Shown here piece after piece: positions 4,095-17,650 of a stretch of 64,000 bases of DNA. Source of the stretch: Bacillota bacterium. Its GTDB lineage: Bacteria > Bacillota > Dethiobacteria > DTU022 > UBA8154. The stretch lies in the NCBI GenBank assembly GCA_012728375.1, contig JAAYFF010000009.1, positions 8,940-72,939 on the forward strand, in the 5' to 3' direction. The notes beneath the pieces were generated by a model, which saw only the letters and a program-made list of their open reading frames with translations, did no database searches and had not been told where the DNA came from. Position numbers and translations under genes: made by a program. Numbering within the stretch: the stretch's first letter is position 1; every line of letters begins with the position of its first letter.

Positions 4095-4339
4095 AAGAAA
4101 CTCCTTTATTGTCTAGATGGTATTATTCTCTATTTTTCATTTTATTTTACATTCCATAAAAAATAGATTTTTCCTGCCCACGGTTATTTTTAATTTTTAT
4201 TAAAAAAAATTTTATAAAAAAGAAGGAAATTTGTTTAGGATGGAGAATATGTGTTATGAATAAAAGATATCATATAATAAAAGATGTTCTTTGGGGGCAG
4301 GTTTTCCCTGGAGTTCTTTTAAAAAAAGGAGGAAAAAAG

Positions 4340-4912
4340 ATGTTGTTAAAGGGTTCAAAGACTGAGAGGAATATTTTAACGGCTTTTGCAGGGGAGTCCC
4401 AGGCCAGGAACCGCTATAATTATTATGCCAGTCAGGCCAAGAAAGAAGGGTTCGTACAAATATCGGCAGTTTTTGAAGAAACGGCCAACCATGAGAAGGA
4501 GCATGCCAAGAGGCTCTTTAAGCTGCTGGAGGGAGGGGAAGTGGAGATTCAGGCCTCTTTTCCCGCCGGAGTAATCGGCACGACGCTGGAAAATCTCCGC
4601 GCCTCCGCGGGTGGAGAAAACCATGAATGGACGGATATGTATCCCTCATTCGCCGCAGTAGCCAGGGAAGAAGGTTTTAACGAGATAGCAGACATATTCG
4701 AAGCTATCGCTGTGGCGGAGAAGCAGCATGAAAAGCGCTTTTTGGGCCTTCTCGCCAATGTGGAAAACGGCAAAGTCTTTAAAAAGGAAAAGAGTATTTC
4801 CTGGATATGCCGCAACTGCGGTTACCGCCATGAGGGAGAGGAAGCACCGGAGACATGTCCTGCCTGCAACCATCCCCAGGCTTATTTTGAAGTCCTCGCT
4901 GAAAATTGGTAA
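4340..4912 (+). CDS. rbr: Rubrerythrin (ferritin-like di-iron domain + C-terminal rubredoxin-like CxxC..CxxC)
   Basis: ExxH di-iron motifs and a C-terminal CRNCGY...CPACNHP. An AAAGGAGG RBS precedes the ATG at 4340. The ORF-track start at 4256 is rejected. Confidence 0.85.
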
Positions 4913-4972: not shown

Positions 4973-5359
4973 ATGACGGAGAGCAGACAGGTTTACAAAT
5001 GTGAAATTTGCGGGAATATAGTGGAGATACTGCACGGGGGCAAGGGGCAGCTCGTCTGCTGCAACAAGCCCATGAAGCTGCTGGAAGAGAACACCGTTGA
5101 TGCTGCTCTGGAGAAGCATGTCCCGGTGGTGGAGAAAACGGAAAAAGGCGTGAAGGTTAAGGTGGGGAGCGTAGCCCACCCCATGGAAGAAAAGCATTAT
5201 ATCGAGTGGGTGGAGATTATCTCCGGCGATAAAATTTGCCGCAAGTGGCTGAAGCCGGGAGAGGTGCCGGAGGCGGATTTTGTTGTCGATTCCGGTGAGG
5301 TCGTTGCCAGGGAATACTGCAATCTCCACGGCCTGTGGAAAAGTTCAGGGGCTGTGTGA
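4973..5359 (+). CDS. dfx: Desulfoferrodoxin (2Fe superoxide reductase)
   Basis: N-terminal desulforedoxin motif CEICGN...CC and a C-terminal neelaredoxin/SOR domain. The RBS is GGAGGCCTAGAGGAG. Confidence 0.85.
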
Positions 5360-5426
5360 AAGAGAAATGTATTGAAGAGAAAGATTATAAGGGAAAAAAA
5401 CTGTTTTAAGGGAACTTTTCGGTGCA

Positions 5427-5457
5427 ACCCGCAAAAATTTTGCGGGTTTTTCTTTTT
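5427..5457 (+). terminator. Rho-independent terminator after dfx
   Basis: cccgcaaaaattttgcggg stem followed by a T-run. Confidence 0.8.
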
Positions 5458-5638
5458 CCACGGCAAAAAATATGTTCTGCTGCAGGAAACGGTATTTGCT
5501 TTTAGCGTCTTAGACAGCAAAAGTATTTTTTAATGCTATTTTAATTTTTAGATGCTGTTTTTTTATGACTTTTTAATTTTAATTTTTATAAAATAGTTAG
5601 GCCTGCGGCCGGGCATTGAGTCTGGAAGGAGTGAAAAA

Positions 5639-6121
5639 ATGTCTAACAAGCTGCCCGACGTTGAAGAAATCCTGGAGGGTGCCGTAAAAAAGCACGGGTT
5701 AGCCGTAGTTCCGCTTTTGCAGGAAATCCAGGAGCATTTCCGCTATTTGCCCGAGGAAGTGCTGCGCAAACTTTCCCAAAAGACCGGAATTCCCTTGATA
5801 GAAATCTATCACGCGGCAACCTTTTATAATTCATTATACTTAACACCGAGAGCCAAGCATCAGATCAATATTTGTACCGGAACTACCTGTCATATCCGGG
5901 GGAGCGGAAAACTTATCGAAGAAGTCTTCCAGGTTTTAGGCATAGGTCCCGGGGAGACAACTTCCGACGGCAATTTTACGCTGGAAACGGTGAACTGTCT
6001 CGGCTGCTGTGCCGTTGCCCCCGCGATGGTTGTGGACGGGAAGTATTATGGAAACCTTACACCCGGCGATGTCCGGGAAATCCTCAATAAAATTATGGAA
6101 AAGGCAGCAGTGGAAGAATAA
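5639..6121 (+). CDS. NuoE/HndA/HydC-like [2Fe-2S] thioredoxin-like NADH dehydrogenase 24 kDa-type subunit
   Basis: CxxxxC...CxxxC motifs (CTGTTCH...CLGCCAVAP). RBS GGAAGGAG. Confidence 0.8.
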   Translation: MSNKLPDVEEILEGAVKKHGLAVVPLLQEIQEHFRYLPEEVLRKLSQKTGIPLIEIYHAATFYNSLYLTPRAKHQINICTGTTCHIRGSGKLIEEVFQVLGIGPGETTSDGNFTLETVNCLGCCAVAPAMVVDGKYYGNLTPGDVREILNKIMEKAAVEE

Positions 6122-6161
6122 CAGTTTCCGGAAAGCCGGAAAAAGATGCTGCCGGCAGGGG

Positions 6162-8033
6162 GTGTATTGTTTGGAAGCGACGAGTAGGTTGGCAGTACCG
6201 GAAGATTTAGCCGGCTTGCGGGAAAGGCTCAAGGATAGGCTTGATGAAAAAAAGCCGCGGCTTGTGGTATGCGGTGATACTGGCTGTACGGTTCGCGACT
6301 CGCGCGAGCTCGCCGCGGCGATAGAGAAGATTCTCAGCGAGCAGGGGCTTAGCGACAGAGTAGAACTTAAGGTTACGGGCTGCCTCGGTTTTTGTGAAAA
6401 GGGGCCTCTGATGCTGGTCTTCCCGGGCGCGATCCTTTATCAGAAGGTTCAGCCGTCGGATGCCGGGGAGATCGTGGAGAAGACGGTGCTGAAAAACGAG
6501 CTTGTGGAAAGGCTTCTCTATACGGACCCGGAGAGCGGACTTCCCGTTGCCTGTGCCTATGATATACCTTTCTATAAGCTGCAAAACCGCGCTCTTTTGG
6601 AAACTTGCTGGTATATCAACCCGCTTGATATTTATGATTATATTGCCCGGGGCGGTTATGCGGCCCTGGCAAAAGTTCTGGGGGGGATGACCCCTGAGGC
6701 TGTGATTGCTGAGATGAAGGAGGCCAGGCTGCGCGGCAGGGGAGGGGCCGGCTTTGCTACAGGGCTTAAATGGGAATTTTGCCGCTCTTCCCCCGGTGAG
6801 GAGAAGTATATTCTCTGCAATGCCGACGAGGGGGACCCGGGTGCTTTTATGGACAGGAGCCTCCTGGAGGGCAATCCCCATGCAGTGCTCGAGGGCATGA
6901 TCATTGCCGCGTATGCTGTGGGGGCGAAGGAAGGAGTTATTTATATCAGAATTGAGTATCCCACTGCGGTTCTTAAACTGGAAGAGGCAGTGCGGCAAGC
7001 CCGGGAGCTGGGCCTTCTGGGGAAGGATATTTTCGGTTCGGGCTTTGATTTTGACGTGATCATTAGCAAAGGTGCCGGCGCTTTTGTCTGCGGCGAAGAG
7101 ACCGCTCTGATCCGTGGGGCTGAAGGGAAGGTGGGCGAGCCGCGCCAGAAGCCTCCTTTCCCGGCAGATGTGGGCTTCAGGGGCAAGCCCACGGTCATAA
7201 ATAATGTGGAAACCTTTGTGAACGTGCCGCTGGTTATTAATCAAGGAGCCGCCCTTTATCACAGTACCGGCACTGAGAGTTCCGGGGGGACTAAGATTTT
7301 CTGCCTGGTGGGCAAGGTGAAAAACACGGGGCTTGTGGAGGTCCCCTTCGGCACCACGCTGCGGCAGATTATTTTTGGCATCGGAGGCGGCATCAAGGAC
7401 GGCAAGAAATTTAAGGCGGTGCAGACCGGCGGTCCTTCCGGCGGCTGCCTTCCCGAAGCAATGCTTGATTTAAAGGTTGATTTCAGCGATCTCGCGCAGG
7501 CGGGCTCGATTATGGGTTCCGGCGGTATGATCGTTATGGACGAGGACACGTGCGTTGTGGATGTAGCCCGTTATTTTCTGCAGTTCCTGAAAAGCGAATC
7601 CTGCGGGAAATGCTTTTCATGCCGGGTGGGGATTGACCGCTTGCTGGAAATCTTGGACCGCATTATCGCGGGAAACGGCTCTGTTGAAGATCTCGCTCTC
7701 CTCGAGGAGCTGGCGGTGACCGTTAAGGATACGACCATGTGCGGATTGGGCCAGACTTCGGCAAACCCCGTTCTCTCTACGCTGAGGTATTTCCGCGACG
7801 AATACCTCGCGCATGTAAGGGACAAGCGCTGCCCCGCGGGGGTCTGCCGCTCCCTTTTCCGTTACCGTATCGATGAAGATCTTTGCGCCGGCTGCGGTGC
7901 CTGCGCGGAGCAGTGTCCTGCCGGGGCCATCAAGGAGACCGATGAAGGCTGCTACCGCATTGATCACGGCCTGTGCACCGTTTGCGGTGCCTGTGCAGAA
8001 ACCTGTGCGCTTGACGCGATCACGAAAGATTAG
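6162..8033 (+). CDS. NuoF/HndC/HydB-like NADH-binding flavoprotein subunit with N-terminal 2Fe-2S and C-terminal 2x[4Fe-4S] ferredoxin domains
   Basis: FMN/NADH motifs GRGGAGFATG and GEETAL, a SLBB domain, a NuoF C-terminal Cys cluster and two CxxCxxCxxxCP motifs. The start is uncertain. The in-frame ATGs lie inside nuoE, and GTG 6162 or TTG 6171/6189 are the alternatives. Confidence 0.75.
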   Translation: MYCLEATSRLAVPEDLAGLRERLKDRLDEKKPRLVVCGDTGCTVRDSRELAAAIEKILSEQGLSDRVELKVTGCLGFCEKGPLMLVFPGAILYQKVQPSDAGEIVEKTVLKNELVERLLYTDPESGLPVACAYDIPFYKLQNRALLETCWYINPLDIYDYIARGGYAALAKVLGGMTPEAVIAEMKEARLRGRGGAGFATGLKWEFCRSSPGEEKYILCNADEGDPGAFMDRSLLEGNPHAVLEGMIIAAYAVGAKEGVIYIRIEYPTAVLKLEEAVRQARELGLLGKDIFGSGFDFDVIISKGAGAFVCGEETALIRGAEGKVGEPRQKPPFPADVGFRGKPTVINNVETFVNVPLVINQGAALYHSTGTESSGGTKIFCLVGKVKNTGLVEVPFGTTLRQIIFGIGGGIKDGKKFKAVQTGGPSGGCLPEAMLDLKVDFSDLAQAGSIMGSGGMIVMDEDTCVVDVARYFLQFLKSESCGKCFSCRVGIDRLLEILDRIIAGNGSVEDLALLEELAVTVKDTTMCGLGQTSANPVLSTLRYFRDEYLAHVRDKRCPAGVCRSLFRYRIDEDLCAGCGACAEQCPAGAIKETDEGCYRIDHGLCTVCGACAETCALDAITKD

Positions 8034-8053
8034 AGGTGGATAAAGTGGTACAA

Positions 8054-8752
8054 ATGACGCTGAACGGGCTTAGGGTCGAGGTAGAGGAAGGTATGACCAT
8101 ACTGGAGGCCGCCCGTTTTTACGGCATTAACATTCCAACCCTCTGTTACCATGAAGGTCTGAGCCCCTACGGGGCGTGCCGCCTTTGCCTGGTGGAAATC
8201 GGGCCTTCCGGGCAGTCGAAGCTGGTAAGCTCCTGTACCCACCGGGTGGAAGAGGGGTTGGTGGTAAGGACCCACTCGGAACGGGTGGTCAAGCGGAGAA
8301 AGATGCTCATTGAGCTTTACCTGGCGACCTGTCCCCAATCCAGGGTCATCCAGGATCTGGCTTCCAAGTATCATGTCACAAGGGTGCGTTTTACACCCCG
8401 CTATGAAGATTGCATTCTCTGCGGGCTCTGCGTGCGCATGTGCGCGGAGCAGATGCAGGGAAAGGCCATCGGGTTCGCGCACCGGGGGAGCAACCGCAAG
8501 GTTGCCACTCCCTTTGATGTGAAATCCGAAGAATGCCGTTTGTGCGGAGGCTGCATGTATATCTGCCCCGCCTGCCAGAGCAGGTGCCAGGGTCCCCAGG
8601 AAGAGGAGCCGCTGTGCAACGCGTGCCTCAATCTGGATCAGCCCTGCCTGAATTATTTTGACGATAACATGTGCTTCATGGATCCCTGCGTCGCGTGTGA
8701 ATTGGGCGCCGGGCGCGAAGCTAAAGCAAAAAGCAGAGATGGGAGGCTTTAA
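8054..8752 (+). CDS. NuoG/HydA N-terminal-like ferredoxin (2Fe-2S + His/Cys 4Fe-4S + 4Fe-4S) lacking any catalytic domain
   Basis: MTLNGLRVEVEEGMTILEA...CYHEGLSPYGACRLC, then CxxCxxCxxxC motifs. RBS GAGGTGG. About 230 aa. Confidence 0.7.
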   Translation: MTLNGLRVEVEEGMTILEAARFYGINIPTLCYHEGLSPYGACRLCLVEIGPSGQSKLVSSCTHRVEEGLVVRTHSERVVKRRKMLIELYLATCPQSRVIQDLASKYHVTRVRFTPRYEDCILCGLCVRMCAEQMQGKAIGFAHRGSNRKVATPFDVKSEECRLCGGCMYICPACQSRCQGPQEEEPLCNACLNLDQPCLNYFDDNMCFMDPCVACELGAGREAKAKSRDGRL

Positions 8753-8756
8753 TGTA

Positions 8757-10340
8757 ATGAGTTTTTCGAGAATAAATTCCAGTGCCGCAACCCTTTCCAA
8801 AAACAGGACGGAAGAATCTATTAACCACCTGAGCGGGATGTGTGTCACCTGCATTGACGGTTGCATCGGAATGTGCGAAGTGGGCAAATCCGCATACCGC
8901 GGGCATGAGGTCCTCTATCCGCAGCCCTTTGGGCTGATCAGCACTGCTTCGGAGAAGAAATATCCCCTTGACTATTCCCATTTTTCTATTATGGGCACGG
9001 CAACGGGGGCAGTGGGCATCGAACCCGACAGCGACAAGGCCATTTTTTCCTCGGTAAACCTGGAGACGAGGCTGGGCCGCGACAAGGGCATAAAATTAAG
9101 ATTACCGATCATAATTTCCGCGATGGGTTCAACCCGCGTGGCGAGCATGAACTGGGACGGGCTTGCGGTGGGAGCAGCCCTGGCGGGAATAATCGTCACC
9201 ATCGGCGAAAATGTCTGCGGCATGGACCCGCAAGTGGAGATCAAAAACGGCAAGGTCGTCAAAAGCCCGGAACTGGAGAGGAGGGTTAAGCTCTTCCAGC
9301 AGTGGCAGATGGACGGTTACGGGGATGTAATTGTTCAGGCGAATGTGGAAGACACAAACCTGGGAGTGCAGGAGTATGCCATTCGTGAGCTCGGCGTCCG
9401 CACCGTGGAGATGAAATGGGGGCAGGGCGCAAAGGATATCGGCGGAGAGGTAAAGATAAACGATCTGGAACGGGCCGTCACCTTAAAGAAAAGGGGATAT
9501 ATCGTGCTCCCTGATCCGGAAAATCCTCAGGTGGTGGAGGAGTTCAAGCGGGGCGCGTTCAAAGAATTCGAACGCCATTCCCGGGTCGGCATGGCTGATG
9601 AGGAATCCTTTGTCCGCCGCGTCGAAGAGCTGCGCAACGCGGGGGCCAAGTATATTTCCCTGAAGACGGGAGCCTACCGGCCGGCTGATCTGGCCCGGGC
9701 CATCAAGTTCTGTTCCGTGGCCGGAGTGGATCTTCTCATTCTGGACGGGGCCGGCGGAGGGACGGGCATGAGCCCCTGGAGAATGATGAACGAGTGGGGA
9801 GTCCCGCCCGTGGAGCTCCATTCTCTCGCGTACAAAATGTGCTCCACCCTGGCTGCGAAGGGTAAATACGTGCCGGACCTGGTCTTTTCGGGTGGCTTTT
9901 CCATGGAAGACCAGATGTTCAAGGGGCTGGCCCTCGGCGCGCCGTACGTGAAGTGCATCGGTATGGCCCGTGCGCCCCTAGCCGCAGCCATGGTGGCAAA
10001 AACAATCGGGCGGCAGATTGGCGAGGAAAACTTGCCCGTTTATGTGGAGCGCTTCGGAAGGACCAGGGAACAGATCTTTGTGACTGCTGCAGAACTGAAG
10101 AATATGCTGGGCAGCGAAAAATATGCCGAAGTTCCCACGGCTGCCATGGGCGTTTTCACCTACTGCGAGAGGCTGTCCCAGGGGCTCAGGCAGATTATGT
10201 GCGGAAGCCGCAAATTTGCTTTGGAATACATTTCCAGAGATGATATTGCCTCGCTGACCAAGGAGGCGGCTGAAGCCAGCGGCATTACCTATATTATGGA
10301 GACGGACGGGGAAGAAATAGAAAGAATTTTAGAAGGCTGA
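8757..10340 (+). CDS. Glutamate synthase FMN-domain (GltB domain 2 / PF01645-like) oxidoreductase with N-terminal Cys cluster
   Basis: GAGGGTGMSPW-type FMN/TIM-barrel motifs and an N-terminal CVTCIDGCIGMC. A GGGAGG RBS sits 10 nt before ATG 8757. An alternative ATG at 8739 overlaps the upstream stop. Confidence 0.7.
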   Translation: MSFSRINSSAATLSKNRTEESINHLSGMCVTCIDGCIGMCEVGKSAYRGHEVLYPQPFGLISTASEKKYPLDYSHFSIMGTATGAVGIEPDSDKAIFSSVNLETRLGRDKGIKLRLPIIISAMGSTRVASMNWDGLAVGAALAGIIVTIGENVCGMDPQVEIKNGKVVKSPELERRVKLFQQWQMDGYGDVIVQANVEDTNLGVQEYAIRELGVRTVEMKWGQGAKDIGGEVKINDLERAVTLKKRGYIVLPDPENPQVVEEFKRGAFKEFERHSRVGMADEESFVRRVEELRNAGAKYISLKTGAYRPADLARAIKFCSVAGVDLLILDGAGGGTGMSPWRMMNEWGVPPVELHSLAYKMCSTLAAKGKYVPDLVFSGGFSMEDQMFKGLALGAPYVKCIGMARAPLAAAMVAKTIGRQIGEENLPVYVERFGRTREQIFVTAAELKNMLGSEKYAEVPTAAMGVFTYCERLSQGLRQIMCGSRKFALEYISRDDIASLTKEAAEASGITYIMETDGEEIERILEG

Positions 10341-10354
10341 GGAGGCGCGTGAGA

Positions 10355-10843
10355 ATGTATTCAAAGCTGGTAGAGCGTGTCACCAATATGCTTGAGGATT
10401 CTTTGCGGTATTCTGAAGAAAAACTCGGAGAAATCAATGCCCTGGAACTTTTAAAAAAGAACGATACCGAAGCTCTCGGCTATTTTCGTTACTCGCTGGC
10501 CATGCAGGCCGGCAATTTTCTGGGAGAGAACAGCGAACACGTTTTGGAAGTCTTCGTCTGCCCTGAAGAGGCAGACGAAGAAATAACGGCAACCCTGCCG
10601 CTGACATTAGTTGTGCGCGTAGAAAAGCATACCGCGGCACTGGCATCAATTGCAGAGGCTTTACAAAACGTTCTTCTTGAAGAATACCGGAAGTTGCTTT
10701 CTCCCCTTGCCGACAATCTCGCCCTTTTCTTAAAAGTTTATTTTGTGGATGAAGATGATTTTCTGAGGCGAAAAGGCCTGGCCGCAGCTGTCGGATCTCT
10801 GTATGCCCCGGCGCTTCGGGTCTGGAGACGGAGTTTCGTCTAA
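10355..10843 (+). CDS. Hypothetical protein (163 aa), co-oriented with the oxidoreductase cluster
   Basis: ORF with a GAGGAGG RBS. I recognise no domain. Confidence 0.5.
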   Translation: MYSKLVERVTNMLEDSLRYSEEKLGEINALELLKKNDTEALGYFRYSLAMQAGNFLGENSEHVLEVFVCPEEADEEITATLPLTLVVRVEKHTAALASIAEALQNVLLEEYRKLLSPLADNLALFLKVYFVDEDDFLRRKGLAAAVGSLYAPALRVWRRSFV

Positions 10844-10919: not shown

Positions 10920-12203
10920 ATGGGGCATCGCCATAAGAAGCGTTGCAGCTTATTTAAAAGATATCCGGTAGCTTTATTTTACCGAAAACTCCTGGAAGCG
11001 TTCGACCTGGACGGTTTTCTTCCTCAAGTAGCTTTCCTATTAAGGGAGGCTGTGCCGGAAATTGACGCTGCTGTTGTTTACCTTTATGATAATGCCGGGA
11101 AGCGGCTTGTGCCGGTTTCAGCCTGCGGCTGTGAACTGAAGGATGTCCGGGAGGTACATTTTGAGACAGAGACATCTCTGGTGGGGAAGGCTTTTAGCCG
11201 GGGAAGGCCTTTCCTGCAGAGGGAACAGGAAGCTGCCAAAGTCCTTGCACAGTATTTTAAACCCGCATCATGTGCACATTTCAGACCCGGCCAAATTGTG
11301 TCCTTATTTTGCGTTCCCATGGATCTTAGCGATGGTACCCGCTTCGGGTGCCTTCTGTTTTTCAGCGCGGCTAAAAATACTTTTTCACCCCGGCGTGCCG
11401 CTTTTTTAAAAAGGGCGGCAAAAATTATGGGACTTTTCATCTATAAGGCGCAGACTTTAAAACAAAGCCAGGAGAAAAAATATTCCAGTTTAGTATGCAC
11501 CCTCTCCCACGAGCTGCGCACCCCTTTGACCTGCATCAAGGGTTACGCAACAACGCTGCTCAGCAGGGAAGGGCAGTGGAGCAGGGATGAGGAGCAAGAG
11601 TTTTTAAAAATTATCGACGCGGAGGCCGACACGATGAAAGAGCTGATCAATGACTTGATGGATTCTTCCATGATCGAATCCGGCCTGCTCAGCGTCCATA
11701 AAGAACCGGTGCTTTTGCCGCGCATTATCAGCAAAGCTGTTGATGATGCGCGGCTGCGCACGACAAAACATAAATTTGTCGTCAGCATCCCAAGGGATTT
11801 TCCGGTGATAGAGGCTGATCCGGTCCGCACCAGGCAGGTTTTGGACAACCTCCTGGAAAACGCCATCAAGTATTCTCCCGAGGGAGGCCTTATTGTTGTG
11901 CAGTGCCGCATTGACCGCGGGGAGGTAATACTGAGCGTCGCGGATGAAGGTATGGGCATTGCACCGGAACATTTGAACCGCCTTTTTGAAAAATTTTATC
12001 GCGTGAAGTCGGATCTTGCCGGAACCGGGTTGGGGTTACCCGTTGCCTGTGAAATTGTGGAAAAACAGGGCGGAAGAATTTGGGCAAAAAGTACCCCCGG
12101 CAAGGGCAGCACCTTTTATTTTACCCTGCCCCTTACTCCCATGGACCAGGTTCCGGAAGAGGAGGAGTGTCCCGTTGAAGAAACAAACCATCCTGGTTGT
12201 TGA
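10920..12203 (+). CDS. Sensor histidine kinase (cytoplasmic GAF-like domain + HisKA + HATPase_c)
   Basis: H-box SHELRTPL, and the N, G1 and G2 boxes (DNLLENAIKYSP, DEGMGI, GTGLGL). There are no TM segments. Confidence 0.8.
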   Translation: MGHRHKKRCSLFKRYPVALFYRKLLEAFDLDGFLPQVAFLLREAVPEIDAAVVYLYDNAGKRLVPVSACGCELKDVREVHFETETSLVGKAFSRGRPFLQREQEAAKVLAQYFKPASCAHFRPGQIVSLFCVPMDLSDGTRFGCLLFFSAAKNTFSPRRAAFLKRAAKIMGLFIYKAQTLKQSQEKKYSSLVCTLSHELRTPLTCIKGYATTLLSREGQWSRDEEQEFLKIIDAEADTMKELINDLMDSSMIESGLLSVHKEPVLLPRIISKAVDDARLRTTKHKFVVSIPRDFPVIEADPVRTRQVLDNLLENAIKYSPEGGLIVVQCRIDRGEVILSVADEGMGIAPEHLNRLFEKFYRVKSDLAGTGLGLPVACEIVEKQGGRIWAKSTPGKGSTFYFTLPLTPMDQVPEEEECPVEETNHPGC

Positions 12204-12888: not shown

Positions 12889-12893
12889 GGTGA

Positions 12894-13142
12894 GGGACAC
12901 ACCTCTTTCAGAGGAATGTCATTTACACTAATGTAAAGGGACACACCTCTTTCAGAGGAATGTCATTTACACTAATGTAAAGGGACACACCTCTTTCAGA
13001 GGAATGTCATTTACACTAATGTGCAGGGACATACCTCTTTCAGAGGAATGTCATTTACACTAATGTGCAGGGACATACCTCTTTCAGAGGAATGTCATTT
13101 ACACTAATGTAAAGGGACACACCTCTTTCAGAGGAATGTCCC
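12894..13142. repeat. Tandem array: 5 full + 1 partial copies of a 44-bp unit (family B: 28-bp GGGACACACCTCTTTCAGAGGAATGTCC hairpin + 16-bp TTTACACTAATGTAAA hairpin)
   Basis: Exact 44-bp periodicity, with units starting at 12894, 12938, 12982, 13026, 13070 and 13114. Units 3-4 carry co-varying substitutions (GGGACATACC / ..ATGTGCA). Confidence 0.95.
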
Positions 13143-14184: not shown

Positions 14185-15588
14185 TTATTCGTTGCGAATG
14201 GCCACCATGGGGCTGACGCGAATAGCGCGGCTGGCTGGATACAGCCCTGCTGCCAGGCCGATAAAGATGGAAAAAACCAGGGCAAAGCCGGCCAGCCAGA
14301 CGGGGATAACGGAGATATTGGTGGCAGGGCCGCCCATACCCCGCTGGATATAATCCGCGCTGATGCGGTTAATAATCTCCGAGGCTCCGTAACTGAGGCC
14401 AAGGCCGAGGATTCCCCCGAAAAGACCGATCAGCGCGGCTTCCATCAGGAAGATGGAGCGGATATCGGCAAAGGAAGCGCCGATGACCTTCATAATGCCG
14501 ATTTCCCTGGTGCGCTCGTAAATGGACATGATCATCGTGTTCGTAATTCCCAGGGCAGCTACGAACAGGGTAATTCCGCCGATTCCTCCCAGGATGGCCT
14601 GCATGGTGCGGGAAGTGTTTTCAATACCTTCAAGGGAATCGGCCATGGACCAGGCATTATAGCCCCTTTCCCGCAGCTCTTTGGAGATTTCTTTGGTCTG
14701 CGCGACATCTTTGGTCCTGACCATGATGGAATTATAATCGTTGCTCCGGTCTTCCCTGCGGTTTCCCCGAGATCCGGAAGCCCTGCCGGTGGAGACCATC
14801 ACTCCGCCTCCGGAGATTATTACTTCTTTGGCCATGGGTCCCAGCATTTGTTTGGAGCTGTTTGCGCCCTGCATCATAAAATCCCGCATCCTTTTAATGT
14901 CATGAATGGACCCGTAGACTTGCCAGGAACGGTCCATGTTTGTTTCATCCAGGATACCTACGACGAATAAATTTTGTTTGCGCTCGTTACCCGCCTGATT
15001 GCGGATGGTAAGCCGGATCCGTTGCTCAAGCAGTTCCGCGGGGTCCTGCTGCTGTGGCCCTTCCCCCATCATCCCGCCTCCGCGTCTGGCAGCCCGTTCG
15101 TCCCAGAAGTTATTGATGACCTGCGATCCGGCTACAATGGCGAAGCGGTCCTCCGGAGTAAGGAGCCTGCCGTGGGAGACGGTAAATTCCAGCTCTTCCA
15201 TTGCTGCGGGGTCAATTCCCACGATGCTCAGGTAGCCTTTTTTTCGGCCTAATTGAGCCTCCCCGTCAATATTGTACACCGGAGAAACGGCGGTAACGCC
15301 CGGGATGGCTTTCAACTCTTCGACGGTTTCATCGGTCATACGTTTTTCTTCACCCGTGGGATTGCCGTTTTCGTCATATCGCATCCCGGGATGGACGTTG
15401 ATAATGTTCAGGCTTCCCCACTGGGCCATACTTTTTTCCATGCTGACCCTAAGCCCGATTCCCAGCGAGATCATCACTACGATGGAGGCGGTCCCAATGA
15501 CGACCCCCAGGCAGGTGAGGATGGTGCGGGCTTTGCGGCGCCATAAATTCTTGTTTGCCATCAGAAGTAGATCTCTTTTACGCATCAA
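14185..15588 (-). CDS. ABC transporter permease, FtsX/MacB-like with large periplasmic domain
   Basis: N-terminal TM, a long extracytoplasmic domain and a C-terminal 3-TM FtsX domain. It overlaps the upstream gene by 11 nt. Confidence 0.8.
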   Translation of the reverse strand: MMRKRDLLLMANKNLWRRKARTILTCLGVVIGTASIVVMISLGIGLRVSMEKSMAQWGSLNIINVHPGMRYDENGNPTGEEKRMTDETVEELKAIPGVTAVSPVYNIDGEAQLGRKKGYLSIVGIDPAAMEELEFTVSHGRLLTPEDRFAIVAGSQVINNFWDERAARRGGGMMGEGPQQQDPAELLEQRIRLTIRNQAGNERKQNLFVVGILDETNMDRSWQVYGSIHDIKRMRDFMMQGANSSKQMLGPMAKEVIISGGGVMVSTGRASGSRGNRREDRSNDYNSIMVRTKDVAQTKEISKELRERGYNAWSMADSLEGIENTSRTMQAILGGIGGITLFVAALGITNTMIMSIYERTREIGIMKVIGASFADIRSIFLMEAALIGLFGGILGLGLSYGASEIINRISADYIQRGMGGPATNISVIPVWLAGFALVFSIFIGLAAGLYPASRAIRVSPMVAIRNE

Positions 15589-17650
15589 AGAACTCCCCGT
15601 TACGTTTTTTCAAACTTCGCCTGCGCAGGAAGAAGCCTCCGGCTGCAGCAGCGATGACCACGGCGATAACCAGCCAAATATGTCTTTTCGAACCACCCTC
15701 CCCGGGTGCCCCCGGCCCTTTTACTCCCGGCGGCATTTCCCCATCCGGGAAAGGTTCCCTTTCCATCATGGGCATAACCTCAATTTGAAAGGGCTCCACA
15801 ACCTGGACCTCCCGGTTGTTATTATCTATGTAGGAAAAGATCAGTTCTCCCTCCAGGGTTCCCTCCTGTTCCGGGTAGATGATTCCCTGGTAATAATCGC
15901 TCATCCCGATTCCCAGGTTGCCCACGAAATAGGAGGCCCCCTCCTTGCGAAAATCTCCCTCCATCATGACGATGAAGTTGCCCAGGTCTACTTTTCCTAC
16001 GTTGACGAATTCCGCGCCGACAAACGCGGGCTGTCCGACGAAAGCCGCGGGCGGAACCTCGATGGAAAGAACCTGCAGCCTGCTTTCCTGGGTGACGGGG
16101 ATGTTGACCATTTCTTCTACTTCATAGGATTTGGCATTTCCATCCTCGTATTCAATAGTCACAGGGACGACATACGTCTTTGCCGTTGCGTTGGGGTCCA
16201 CTAGCAAGTCCAGGCTCTGCTCCAAAACGGTTTTAGAGGGGATCTCCTCGATAAAGAAGCTGTTGCTGCTGTTGACCGGCGAGAAAACCGTTCCCCCGCT
16301 TGTGGTGGAACTGCTGCCCGTTTCCTCAACCATGAGTATCCCCAGGGAAACCTTGATATTGTGGACCGGACGTGAGTGCGTGTTTTCGATAAAAAGGCTG
16401 AGGGTGACGATATTGCCTGCCAGTATTTTCTCCTCGGAAAGGGTATATTTGCTGATCAGAACTCGTGGCTCTCCCGCGGCAGCGCCCAGCCCCACCTGGG
16501 AGGCGGCGATGCCCAGAGTTTCCGTTGAAGCCGGGACAGGATTCCGATTGGCATCTTTATACTCTATCTTGATGTTTAGGGGAAGGTGGGAAGCTTCAGT
16601 ATCTGTGTTGATACCGAGCAAATATTCAATTTCAATTTCTTGCTTTGCATCAATTTGAGGAAAATAATTAACATTAGACCCGCCTAACACAAAGATGGCA
16701 TTGCCTCCATCCAACGCGAAGACAATATCTTTTGCTGCTTGGCCACCTGTATTTTGCAATATTAGTTTTAAAAGGTATTCTTTATCATTTGTTTTCTGTA
16801 AAGCATAGGATTTTGTTTTTAAAAAGGGACTACTGCCCGAGCTTGCTTGATCTAGGGGAAGATTTATAAAAAGCTCGCTGGTTGCCTTAGTTCCTGCGGA
16901 ATATTCATAAGCAAACGATAATTTAATTCTATTATCTTCCTTGTTTTCTTTGCTTTTTAAAGTAAAACCAAGAGAGGTGTTCGCATTTTTAACGATGTTT
17001 GGCAGGAACTTGCGGTTAGTTATGTCAACAATGTCAAAATTATTTAAACCGTCGATTTCAACATTGACATTTCGGGCTTCAATATTGCTGTAATTGTCAA
17101 AAGAAAAAAGTGCGGTAAACTTTTCAGTTAGTGTGGGGACTGCAGGATCAAGAGTTACTTTATTAACGGTAATATTGGGAGTAGAGAGATCGAAAGAGTC
17201 AGGCAAGGGAAGATTTACGGTGAGTGTTTGTGATCCTGATCTGATGGTCTCATTTCTATAATCATCATAGTCATAAGTAAAACTTAATGTAACAGTATTT
17301 TCTTTTCGTTCTTCCTTACTTTTAAGGGTGAAGGAGATGGAGCTTGCAGAACCTCCTCCGGAAATACTATTTTTGAACTGAAAGTTAGTGAGCCCGATAA
17401 CCTCAAAATTCCCCTGGCCATTGATTTCAACCCGGACATTGCGCGCATCAAGAGGGCTTATATTGCTAATTGAAAATTTGGCGGTAAAAGGTTCGAAAGG
17501 TTTAGGGTTTTCAGGCTCGATGGTTACTCTTTCGACTGACAGAAAAGGGTAGTCAGGTGCAGCTATTAGTACTTGACCTGATACATTAGAAGGCAGGATC
17601 TGGAGGATAAAAAAGCTTACCATTAACAAGAAAAGTAAAAATCTGTTCAT
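15578..17650 (-). CDS. Secreted/membrane-anchored repeat protein with CARDB/COG1361-like Ig-fold domains (ABC-transporter-associated)
   Basis: Signal peptide, about five beta-rich repeat domains of which the first two are a clear tandem duplication, and a C-terminal TM anchor followed by RRRSLKKR. Confidence 0.65.
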   Translation of the reverse strand: MNRFLLFLLMVSFFILQILPSNVSGQVLIAAPDYPFLSVERVTIEPENPKPFEPFTAKFSISNISPLDARNVRVEINGQGNFEVIGLTNFQFKNSISGGGSASSISFTLKSKEERKENTVTLSFTYDYDDYRNETIRSGSQTLTVNLPLPDSFDLSTPNITVNKVTLDPAVPTLTEKFTALFSFDNYSNIEARNVNVEIDGLNNFDIVDITNRKFLPNIVKNANTSLGFTLKSKENKEDNRIKLSFAYEYSAGTKATSELFINLPLDQASSGSSPFLKTKSYALQKTNDKEYLLKLILQNTGGQAAKDIVFALDGGNAIFVLGGSNVNYFPQIDAKQEIEIEYLLGINTDTEASHLPLNIKIEYKDANRNPVPASTETLGIAASQVGLGAAAGEPRVLISKYTLSEEKILAGNIVTLSLFIENTHSRPVHNIKVSLGILMVEETGSSSTTSGGTVFSPVNSSNSFFIEEIPSKTVLEQSLDLLVDPNATAKTYVVPVTIEYEDGNAKSYEVEEMVNIPVTQESRLQVLSIEVPPAAFVGQPAFVGAEFVNVGKVDLGNFIVMMEGDFRKEGASYFVGNLGIGMSDYYQGIIYPEQEGTLEGELIFSYIDNNNREVQVVEPFQIEVMPMMEREPFPDGEMPPGVKGPGAPGEGGSKRHIWLVIAVVIAAAAGGFFLRRRSLKKRNGEFFDA

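Follow-up and report, generated by a model that had tools for sequence, protein, structure and literature searches.

Gene content of the locus

The window analysed here is a 64,000-nucleotide stretch of contig JAAYFF010000009.1 from a Bacillota bacterium (NCBI GenBank assembly GCA_012728375.1). Positions 5639-10843 of the window hold five close-packed genes on the same (+) strand, g1 to g5, with gaps of 40, 2, 4 and 14 nucleotides (nt) between them. The first four, which are the subject of this analysis, are predicted to encode a NADH/ferredoxin input module of the Bfu family and a flavoprotein related to glutamate synthase. The genes are:

5639-6121, + strand: g1, NuoE/HydC/BfuC-like thioredoxin-fold [2Fe-2S] subunit, 160 amino acids (aa); PF01257 at 159 bits
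6162-8033, + strand: g2, bifurcating-type NuoF/HydB/BfuB flavoprotein, 623 aa; GTG start; Pfam and full-length alignment to structural homologs
8036-8752, + strand: g3, small BfuA (NuoG/HydA N-terminal type), 238 aa; PF13510 and Fer4_7, no catalytic domain
8757-10340, + strand: g4, flavin mononucleotide (FMN) TIM-barrel protein, 527 aa, presumed catalytic subunit; PF01645 at 55 bits
10355-10843, + strand: g5, lineage-specific orphan, 162 aa; no family match; alternative GTG start at 10349

The open frame of g2 extends from 6009, and the GTG at 6162 was taken as the start since an 88%-identical relative is called with 622 aa. An earlier, sequence-only reading had described five co-oriented, tightly spaced genes at these coordinates. 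Its domain calls for g1-g4 (NuoE-like, NuoF-like with ferredoxin domains, NuoG/HydA N-terminal type and GltB FMN domain) agreed with the Pfam and NCBIfam searches, in which PF01257, PF01512/PF10589, PF13510 and PF01645 were all matched in the expected genes.

Electron-input subunits

The g1 protein is a NuoE-like BfuC under the IPR002023 criterion, and its NuoE and HoxE NCBIfam matches fell under the equivalog cut-offs. It is encoded next to g2, and the two genes are adjacent in 63 of 68 loci. Pfam matches in g2 comprised PF01512 (155 bits), PF10589 (108 bits), an SLBB domain, an N-terminal PF01257-like 2Fe-2S domain and C-terminal Fer4 domains. BfuB subunits are defined by IPR011538, IPR019554, IPR019575 and IPR017896, which stand for the NuoF FMN, SLBB, NuoF 4Fe-4S and ferredoxin-type 4Fe-4S domains, respectively (Schut et al. 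2022, PMC9304861). The corresponding PF01512, PF10531, PF10589 and PF00037/PF12838 were all detected in g2. The protein aligned end to end with the B subunits of bifurcating enzymes, including HydB (7q4v_B, 739 bits), NiFe-HydB (7t2r_B, 735 bits), Wor-Bfu (9mqx_B, 698 bits), NfnB (9n5u_B, 653 bits) and also 8a6t_B. Matches to complex I NuoF and to the beta subunits of non-bifurcating formate dehydrogenases were limited to its central part. The g2 protein has an N-terminal [2Fe-2S] domain, the FMN/NADH site, an N3-type [4Fe-4S] cluster and a B2 site of the His/Cys3 kind, and its C-terminal domain binds two further [4Fe-4S] clusters.

The ligands of the B2 site in A. mobile are C438, C476 (or Thr), H525, C531 and C536; the His is absent in non-bifurcating homologs, and non-bifurcating NuoF homologs are without both terminal domains (Schut et al. 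2022, PMC9304861). Column-by-column alignment with 7t2r_B mapped these positions to C464, I502, H551, C557 and C562 of g2, respectively. C464, H551, C557 and C562 were invariant in 69 of 69 family members, together with the N3/B1 ligands C481, C484, C487 and C527. As g2 also retains the N-terminal C37, C42, C74 and C78 and eight C-terminal Cys, the cluster-ligand sets B1 to B5 are full.

Analysis of g3 identified PF13510 (Fer2_4) and a 4Fe-4S dicluster domain (Fer4_7) and nothing further. Its best solved relative is 9mqx_A, a 247-aa "NuoG-like" type-2 BfuA without a catalytic domain. Sets of four and eight Cys, for one [2Fe-2S] and two [4Fe-4S] clusters, were invariant in 77 homologs; the His-x3-Cys motif of the N5-type, His-ligated cluster is not present. 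The C-terminal tail is family-specific and has eight conserved Cys in the same 77 homologs (180, 184, 194, 197, 204, 213, 218 and 221). A BfuA has, at minimum, 2Fe-2S and 4Fe-4S ferredoxin-type domains, and in type 2 the A3/A5 clusters are lacking and the catalytic subunit is separate (PMC9304861); g3 is built in this way. By the published criteria, the electron-input machinery of the cassette is a bona fide and complete Bfu (HydABC-type) core of "type 2". The HydABC-type bifurcation core of the sequence-only reading was likewise borne out by the full-length match of g2 to bifurcating HydB/BfuB and the match of g3 to 9mqx_A.

In 41 of 69 relatives BfuB is ~1060 aa long (e.g., L022:4111-7296), and the NuoF core is followed by Fer4_20 and Pyr_redox_2. 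These represent a GltD-like (glutamate-synthase small subunit/NfnB-type) flavin adenine dinucleotide (FAD)/NAD(P)H module, which replaces the C-terminal ferredoxin domain of BfuB. GltD is the canonical electron donor in glutamate synthase. Many of the GltD-fused forms lack two of the four N-terminal [2Fe-2S] Cys. Both features would suit a complex that does not bifurcate and is a plain NADH-dependent reductase (NAD(P)H-dependent in the fused relatives), in which the extra BfuB clusters are a wire or vestigial. Such an enzyme would also fit the NADH-only form of the reaction proposed below, which is exergonic under standard conditions by our own calculation. In g2 of the window, residue 502 (nt ~7665-7667), the fifth B2 ligand position, is Ile, where 65 of 69 relatives have Thr or Ser; this residue counts in favour of a plain reductase and against the coupled enzyme that we propose. 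Nevertheless, we regard a non-bifurcating enzyme as unlikely, given that every cluster-ligand set of a bifurcating BfuB is present in g2, including the His that non-bifurcating homologs lack, and that g2 has the two terminal domains which are missing from the known non-bifurcating NuoF homologs.

The FMN-barrel subunit

PF01645 was the sole Pfam family matched by g4 (cut-off of 20.4 bits), over profile positions 185-302 of 369. Homologs of g4 fell into more than 8000 clusters (90% identity) and were 66-96% identical to it, all scored matches being significant. Full-length identity was 66-77% to proteins from Bacillota, Thermoplasmata, Aminicenantes, WOR-3, Aerophobetes and other groups, and an alignment of 19 cross-phylum sequences showed a mean column identity of 81%. 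The N-terminal CxxCxxxCxxxC motif pointed out in the sequence-only reading (C29-x2-C32-x3-C36-x3-C40) was invariant in these 19 homologs. The N-terminus is strongly conserved but unstructured in the monomer model, as would be expected of a cluster-binding interface. Public records name the family merely "FMN-binding glutamate synthase family protein".

The g4 loop 'KWGQGAKDIGGE' parallels the E. coli GltB loop 'KVAQGAKPGEGGQ'. With the phosphate motif included, GltB reads 'IKVAQGAKPGEGGQLPG ... GYDGGTGASP' and g4 reads 'MKWGQGAKDIGGEVKI ... DGAGGGTGMSP'; 'GGGTGMSP' of g4 is equivalent to the FMN-phosphate motif 'DGGTGASP' of GltB, and the spacing is similar. A QGAK...GG(E/Q) loop and a GGTGxSP motif are thus common to both proteins. 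R246 of g4, 20 residues past the loop lysine, is invariant. We take it to stand at the place of the GltB arginine that presumably binds the gamma (distal) carboxylate of 2-oxoglutarate, which is a lead and not a test.

An 800-aa protein, P0230, carries a g4-family catalytic domain (g4 profile E = 8e-50) fused to an FrhB/FdhB-type F420-binding module with two [4Fe-4S] clusters. It shares the motifs TIGENV, QANIED, QGAKPGMGGE, KKKGY, FKTGAY and GGTGMSP with g4, and its loop 'QGAKPGMGGE' is intermediate between those of g4 and GltB. Because P0230 carries this domain, one catalytic domain is joined to F420, NADH/ferredoxin or NAD(P)H input modules. Divergent second g4-like paralogs (50-58% identical) were observed beside the cassette at L008:2084-3709 (Dethiobacter), L052:9945-11573 (Altiarchaeales) and L072:1000-2703 (Desulfatiglandales).

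Conservation of the cassette

A scan for g4 in one genome per GTDB species identified at least 599 species with a homolog, and 80 loci were kept. Their hosts included Zixibacteria, Planctomycetota, Bacteroidota, Ignavibacteria, Dehalococcoidia, Acidobacteriota, Latescibacterota, Verrucomicrobiota, Myxococcota, Syntrophaceae, Smithella, Syntrophorhabdus, Desulfatiglandales, Acetothermia, Aerophobetes, Altiarchaeales, Thermoplasmata and others. The order g1-g2-g3-g4 was present in 63 of the 68 loci with sufficient upstream DNA, in at least 20 phyla, archaea included; three more loci had g2-g3-g4, and in two of these g2 meets the contig edge. Three homologs that were looked up, from a Bacillota, a Thermoplasmata archaeon and an Aminicenantes bacterium, showed the identical gene order. 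As the order recurs in this number of loci from unrelated phyla, the arrangement is far beyond chance. The conserved unit comprises the four genes g1-g4, and not five as the sequence-only reading had it, g5 having four homolog clusters only.

The two true exceptions among the 68 were L063, an orphan g4 copy adjoining an IclR regulator, an SDR and an MFS transporter, and L076:2651-7971 (Aminicenantes), a broken cassette in which a truncated g3 without its 2Fe-2S domain precedes g4. TraG/TrwB-like and Mrr-like genes adjoin the latter, which suggests disruption by a mobile element.

Across the loci, identity was highest for g4 (66-70%), with 50-64% for g2, 50-74% for g3 and 39-55% for g1. The g4 protein ranks with the most conserved uncharacterised proteins, its identity staying at 66-70% between Bacillota and Thermoplasmata, and it is nearly always tied to a bifurcating NADH/ferredoxin core. 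In all likelihood, the general architecture of g1-g4 is that of a Bfu core with g4 as its flavoprotein partner. In 17 loci, an open reading frame (ORF) of ~131 aa without a Pfam match lies immediately 5' of g1 (e.g., L071:2707-3099), and BfuC is there ~290 aa long with a C-terminal extension.

Genes neighbouring the cassette

All ORFs within 8 kb of ~80 loci were clustered and the recurrent families annotated. The neighbours, mostly co-oriented, included glutamate dehydrogenase (GDH) in 11 loci, glutamine synthetase (GS) in five, the nitrogen repressor NrpR in five and PII in two. The GDH gene is mostly directly 3' of g4 or 5' of g1 on the same strand; by chance, it would be expected in fewer than one locus in 80 (estimated from 1-2 genes per genome and ~16 genes per window of neighbours). 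Stand-alone GltD matches were found in four loci, and were clearly a separate gene in L013 only. An NtrC-family sigma-54 response regulator with a kinase was located near the cassette in ~28 of the ~80 loci, and a strict sigma-54 promoter motif was present within 500 nt 5' of g1 in 9 of 65 loci, compared with ~1.4 expected. The sequence-only reading had left the substrate as a 2-oxoacid, an imine or something else; the recurrent nitrogen-assimilation neighbours narrow this towards 2-oxoglutarate, NH3 and glutamate. In L004 (Thermoplasmata), a 286-aa protein without a Pfam match is encoded between GDH and BfuC (6041-6901), on the same strand and with overlapping ends; no homolog of it was found in the other loci.

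Pfam scanning of the window itself took in essentially all plausible genes of 150 aa or more between 1 and 31.4 kb and, past that point, the ten largest ORFs only. The families identified included PGA_cap, MFS, CHASE2-cyclase, rubrerythrin, desulfoferrodoxin, Amj, ABC transporter, peptidases, cell-wall enzymes, isocitrate/isopropylmalate dehydrogenase, S-adenosylmethionine synthetase, RecD2, GAPDH and others. None of these ORFs was matched as a hydrogenase, a formate dehydrogenase, GltB1, GltB3 or GltD.

Proposed reaction

What the subunits are, which cofactor ligands they keep, how far the cassette is conserved and which genes surround it, as described above, all come from sequence-level evidence. 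Tentatively, and with slightly less than even confidence, we propose that g1-g4 encode a member of the Bfu family, linked to NADH and ferredoxin, that works as an ammonia-dependent glutamate synthase or as a glutamate oxidoreductase. Bifurcation itself is a prediction, and so are the path of the electrons, the substrate, the stoichiometry and the physiological direction. The enzyme would be a soluble, four-subunit Bfu-family iron-sulfur flavoenzyme in which NADH is oxidised at the FMN of BfuB (g2), ferredoxin docks on the C-terminal 2x[4Fe-4S] domain of the same subunit, and BfuC (g1) gives the gating [2Fe-2S] cluster. Electrons would pass from the N3-type cluster of BfuB (B1) to the three clusters of the small BfuA (g3), one [2Fe-2S] and two [4Fe-4S], then through one or two clusters on its Cys-rich tail to the N-terminal [4Fe-4S] cluster of g4, and finally to the g4 FMN. 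There, the substrate reduced to glutamate would most likely be 2-iminoglutarate, formed from 2-oxoglutarate and free ammonia. The reduction of 2-oxoglutarate and NH3 to glutamate is favoured because of the GltB-type loop, the GltD fusions, the GDH, GS, NrpR and PII neighbours, and the precedent of putative F420-dependent glutamate synthases that use a catalytic module of this kind.

The enzyme would thus be an amidotransferase-less, ammonia-dependent glutamate synthase, probably reversible, with the predicted net reaction NADH + 2 Fd(red) + 2 2-oxoglutarate + 2 NH4+ -> NAD+ + 2 Fd(ox) + 2 glutamate, where Fd is ferredoxin. In an alternative, NADH-bifurcating form, the reaction would be 2 NADH + Fd(ox) + 2-oxoglutarate + NH4+ -> 2 NAD+ + Fd(red) + glutamate. 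The predicted role is ammonium assimilation without ATP at scarce NH4+, where the effective potential of the 2-oxoglutarate + NH4+/glutamate couple falls to or below that of NADH. At ~50 mM glutamate, 0.5 mM 2-oxoglutarate and ≤1 mM NH4+, this potential is ~-0.28 V or lower, i.e., at or below NADH (calculated from general background constants). The added electrons of ferredoxin, as in H2 formation by HydABC, would permit assimilation at low ammonium and spare the ATP of the GS-glutamate synthase (GS-GOGAT) pathway.

Textbook ammonium assimilation has two routes, namely GDH and the GS-GOGAT pathway, the latter consuming one ATP. Whether the cassette represents a third, ATP-independent route is, in our view, doubtful; it would be an electron-confurcating glutamate synthase driven by NADH and ferredoxin (NADPH in the GltD-fused forms), working where NAD(P)H-linked GDH is at equilibrium. 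If true, a ferredoxin-boosted, amidotransferase-less enzyme of this kind would suit life near the thermodynamic limit, and the Bfu family would gain a nitrogen-assimilating member, shared by hundreds of species of energy-limited anaerobes, both bacteria and archaea. Since the cassette is found in hundreds of anaerobic species, often by nitrogen-assimilation genes, it may be an undescribed route by which glutamate is made or broken.

Evidence on the substrate and direction

Several observations weigh against the assignment to glutamate. The substrate assignment rests on distant homology and context. No GltS was among the matches when g4 was searched, as a single sequence (phmmer) and as a profile (hmmsearch), against all PDB sequences, and hhalign of g4 with E. 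coli GltB gave a probability of 14% over 79 columns around the FMN-phosphate motif. A g4 profile search of 1.84 billion cluster representatives returned 1344 proteins at E ≤ 0.001, which was judged too few for the canonical GltB families to be included. The CX5CX4C 3Fe-4S motif is absent, as GltB has 'GCKYLRICHLNNC' where g4 has 'MARAPLAAAMVAKT' without Cys, the g4 Cys being N-terminal instead, and the glutamine of the GltB loop is a glutamate in g4. As to context, nitrogen genes are missing from the 8 kb around most loci, and the scanned ORFs of this window, where the regulators are of the GAF-kinase/OmpR type, include none. The top NCBIfam matches of the sigma-54 regulators, AtoC and NtrC, were both under the equivalog cut-offs, and the name NtrC proper is therefore not supported for them. 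No amidotransferase homolog (seed, E. coli GltB residues 1-780) and no GXGXG homolog (seed, residues 1241-1486) was found within 8 kb in the ~80 loci, and PF01493 was not seen in the window scans. The standard potential of the 2-oxoglutarate + NH4+/glutamate couple, from the GDH equilibrium, is ~-0.13 V, well above NAD, unlike the third substrates of characterised Bfu enzymes, which are not well above NAD. Lastly, co-transcription with GDH could mean catabolism or cofactor cycling.

On these comparisons, g4 is a distant member of the glutamate-synthase FMN-domain family, much farther from true GltB than its label implies. The sequence-only reading, which had called it a glutamate-synthase-type FMN protein, holds as regards PF01645, the loop and the phosphate motif, but it understated the distance from GltB. 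Its statement that g4 has no amidotransferase or GltD partner stands for the scanned ORFs of the window, and for the amidotransferase also within 8 kb in the ~80 loci, but not for GltD, given the fusion of a GltD-like module to BfuB in 41 of 69 relatives.

An alternative is the same Bfu-type complex with another g4 substrate, which could be a 2-hydroxy/2-oxo acid pair (lactate, glycolate or 2-hydroxyglutarate), an enoate or a different imine. The complex would then be a Bfu analogue of the confurcating lactate dehydrogenase/Etf or Bcd/Etf systems. Fold searches with the g4 model ranked FMN 2-hydroxyacid dehydrogenases/oxidases and type-2 isopentenyl diphosphate (IPP) isomerase first and did not retrieve GltS; the g4 match covers about one third of PF01645; and the missing amidotransferase and GXGXG partners and the orphan g4 of L063, beside IclR, SDR and MFS genes, also agree with another substrate. 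The adjoining GDH could in that case provide 2-oxoglutarate for a following step. Against this, the QGAK...GG(E/Q) loop and motif spacing of g4 are GltB-like, a GltD module is fused in 41 of 69 relatives, and GS, NrpR and PII neighbours are hard to square with a hydroxyacid enzyme. The CoA-transferase and dehydratase genes of the hydroxyglutarate pathway were not recurrent in the neighbourhoods. We consider another substrate rather doubtful.

The GDH neighbours and the standard potential raise the further question of direction. With the same chemistry, amino-acid-fermenting or syntrophic anaerobes could oxidise glutamate to yield two NADH, with the pull provided by reduced ferredoxin that 2-oxoacid oxidoreductases supply. 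Alternatively, the complex could form a metabolite-mediated transhydrogenase cycle with the adjacent NADP-GDH. GDH is the commonest metabolic neighbour (11 loci), and the mean of the standard potentials of glutamate (~-0.13 V) and ferredoxin (~-0.45 V) is near that of NAD by our own calculation. The Aminicenantes, Thermoplasmata, Syntrophorhabdus, Smithella and Zixibacteria hosts are, we presume, degraders of protein and amino acids or syntrophs, which would also fit. However, GS, NrpR, PII and NtrC-type regulators typify assimilation, low-potential ferredoxin spent on NADH wastes energy that such organisms normally conserve, and an ordinary GDH already fills this role. A catabolic direction is, in our view, quite unlikely.

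The sequence-only reading had also named two circumstances that would speak against it, namely nearby GltB1/GltB3 genes, or a nearby hydrogenase or formate dehydrogenase to which the NuoEF-like genes belong. In the first, g4 would supply the FMN subunit to either a conventional split (archaeal-type) glutamate synthase or an N-methylglutamate synthase. The PF01645 match and the public family name fit this, and MgsC of N-methylglutamate synthase bears the identical generic name (PMC6237917). However, neither the scanned window ORFs nor the 8-kb surroundings of the ~80 loci yielded a GATase-2 or GXGXG homolog. In N-methylglutamate synthase, MgsC is encoded beside MgsA (GATase-like) and MgsB (GXGXG), usually with gmaS, and such neighbours were likewise seen in neither place. 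In the second, g1-g3 would be part of the neighbouring enzyme, of which the window scan showed none. The four-gene order, kept in 63 of 68 loci, also argues against both. These explanations are highly improbable and were rejected on the Pfam scan of the window and on the searches with the GltB N- and C-terminal seeds.

Comparison with known systems

The closest known systems to the proposed enzyme are members of the BfuABC family, type 2 in particular, e.g., the tungsten aldehyde oxidoreductase Wor-Bfu (PDB 9mqx). The cassette resembles it in the BfuC and BfuB core, in all cofactor ligand sets, and in a small BfuA, with one [2Fe-2S] and two [4Fe-4S] clusters only, that links electrons to or from a separate catalytic subunit. 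It differs in that the partner is an FMN TIM-barrel of the glutamate-synthase superfamily and not a hydrogenase, pterin enzyme, carbon monoxide dehydrogenase (CODH), POR or rubrerythrin, and in the additional eight-conserved-Cys tail of BfuA. The Bfu partners described by Schut et al. (2022, PMC9304861) are hydrogenases, formate dehydrogenase, Nfn, F420, Wor, Por, Codh, Bam, Rbr, Mbh and Nuo, with 17-18 clades unassigned. Neither 'glutamate' nor 'GltB' occurs in the text or supplement of that paper. The pairing of g4 with a Bfu core therefore assigns a partner for some of the Bfu complexes that lack a known third substrate.

The Bfu-type NADH-dependent ferredoxin:NADP+ transhydrogenase NfnABC/StnABC (PDB 9n5u, 8oh5) likewise joins a Bfu core to a module taken from glutamate synthase; this module is GltD-like, and a GltD-like FAD/NAD(P)H module is also found in relatives of the cassette. 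In Nfn/Stn, the GltD-like module is within BfuA and NADP(H) is the third substrate, whereas the g4 cassette has a GltB-FMN-like module as a separate subunit, and its relatives have the GltD-like module fused to BfuB.

With glutamate synthase (GltS), the g4 cassette shares PF01645, the QGAK...GG loop, the GGTGxSP motif and a predicted delivery of electrons to FMN via Fe-S clusters, and its genomic surroundings link it to GltD, GS, GDH and nitrogen regulators. In GltS, NH3 comes through a tunnel from a class-II (Ntn) glutamine amidotransferase domain or subunit, GXGXG is a C-terminal beta-helix, and the 3Fe-4S motif follows the FMN-binding strands. In contrast to GltS, g4 has no amidotransferase, central or GXGXG domain, so the nitrogen donor would be free NH3, and the CX5CX4C 3Fe-4S motif is replaced by the N-terminal CxxCxxxCxxxC. 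Putative F420-dependent glutamate synthases (FGltS) have been described in methanogens (Susanti and Mukhopadhyay 2012, PMC3448663; Kaster et al. 2011, PMC3087415). They also place a GltB2-type catalytic module on a non-canonical electron-input module and are thus a precedent for swapping of the input module. The donor in FGltS, itself putative, is F420H2 via an FrhB-like domain, compared with NADH/ferredoxin via BfuABC, and its authors wrote the reaction as glutamine-dependent, whereas the cassette is proposed to be ammonia-dependent.

A functional analogy, with no homology claimed, exists with lactate dehydrogenase/Etf and butyryl-CoA dehydrogenase/Etf, in which NADH and ferredoxin are coupled to a flavoenzyme reaction above the NAD potential. 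The catabolic and bifurcating variants considered above follow the same thermodynamic logic, although the proteins (EtfAB, with a bifurcating FAD) are unrelated. A full-text literature search, with subscription-only papers outside its reach, turned up no account of a Bfu core joined to a GltB2-like subunit. The catalytic partner, the Cys-rich connector and the implied reaction of the cassette are undescribed. The natural swapping of modules (BfuABC, BfuB-GltD and FrhB) on one catalytic domain would be useful for understanding and engineering electron bifurcation.

The fifth gene and flanking features

The sequence-only reading had found no recognisable domain in the product of g5, and this was confirmed, with no match of the 162-aa protein in Pfam or NCBIfam. 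The protein is identical to the public protein P0121, has homologs in four clusters among 5.8 billion proteins, and was present in the closest loci L001-L003 only. Its model (pLDDT 79) showed no significant fold match, with a weak MNT-like likeness at a TM score of 0.3-0.37. A hidden amidotransferase, GXGXG domain or chaperone was rejected for g5 on these grounds. It is probably co-transcribed with the cassette, and is best treated, from its sequence distribution, as a lineage-specific add-on outside the conserved unit.

The features flanking the operon are:

4256-4912, + strand: rubrerythrin, directly upstream
4973-5359, + strand: desulfoferrodoxin, directly upstream
5426-5448, + strand: terminator-like hairpin and T-run (10-bp stem, then TTTCTTTTT), ending the rubrerythrin/desulfoferrodoxin unit; 5' border of the operon
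5565-5594, + strand: weak sigma-70-like promoter match, candidate only, 45 nt 5' of g1; 9 of 12 positions agree
10920-12203, + strand: GAF-HisKA-HATPase sensor histidine kinase (Pfam), candidate operon regulator; also downstream in L001-L003
12175-12888, + strand: OmpR/winged-helix response regulator, kinase partner; TTG start at 12175 behind a GGAGGAG ribosome-binding site

The hairpin at 5426-5448 is strong and sits between the upstream genes and the operon. A rubrerythrin-Bfu, a type proposed by Schut et al., was rejected, as this terminator intervenes and the adjacency of the rubrerythrin and desulfoferrodoxin genes to the operon is missing in the 88%-identical relative L001. The number of sigma-70-like matches in the region was not above that in shuffled sequence. 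The kinase and regulator pair had been noted directly downstream in the sequence-only reading, and both were recovered there by Pfam.

A 690-aa ORF without a Pfam match (15578-17650, - strand) is flanked by genes for an ABC-transporter ATPase and an FtsX/MacB-type permease. Between the stop codon of the response regulator and the convergent Amj gene, a tandem array at 12893-13140 is made up of 5.6 copies of a 44-nt unit (AGGGACACACCTCTTTCAGAGGAATGTCATTTACACTAATGTAA) with 97% matching, each copy containing a small hairpin.

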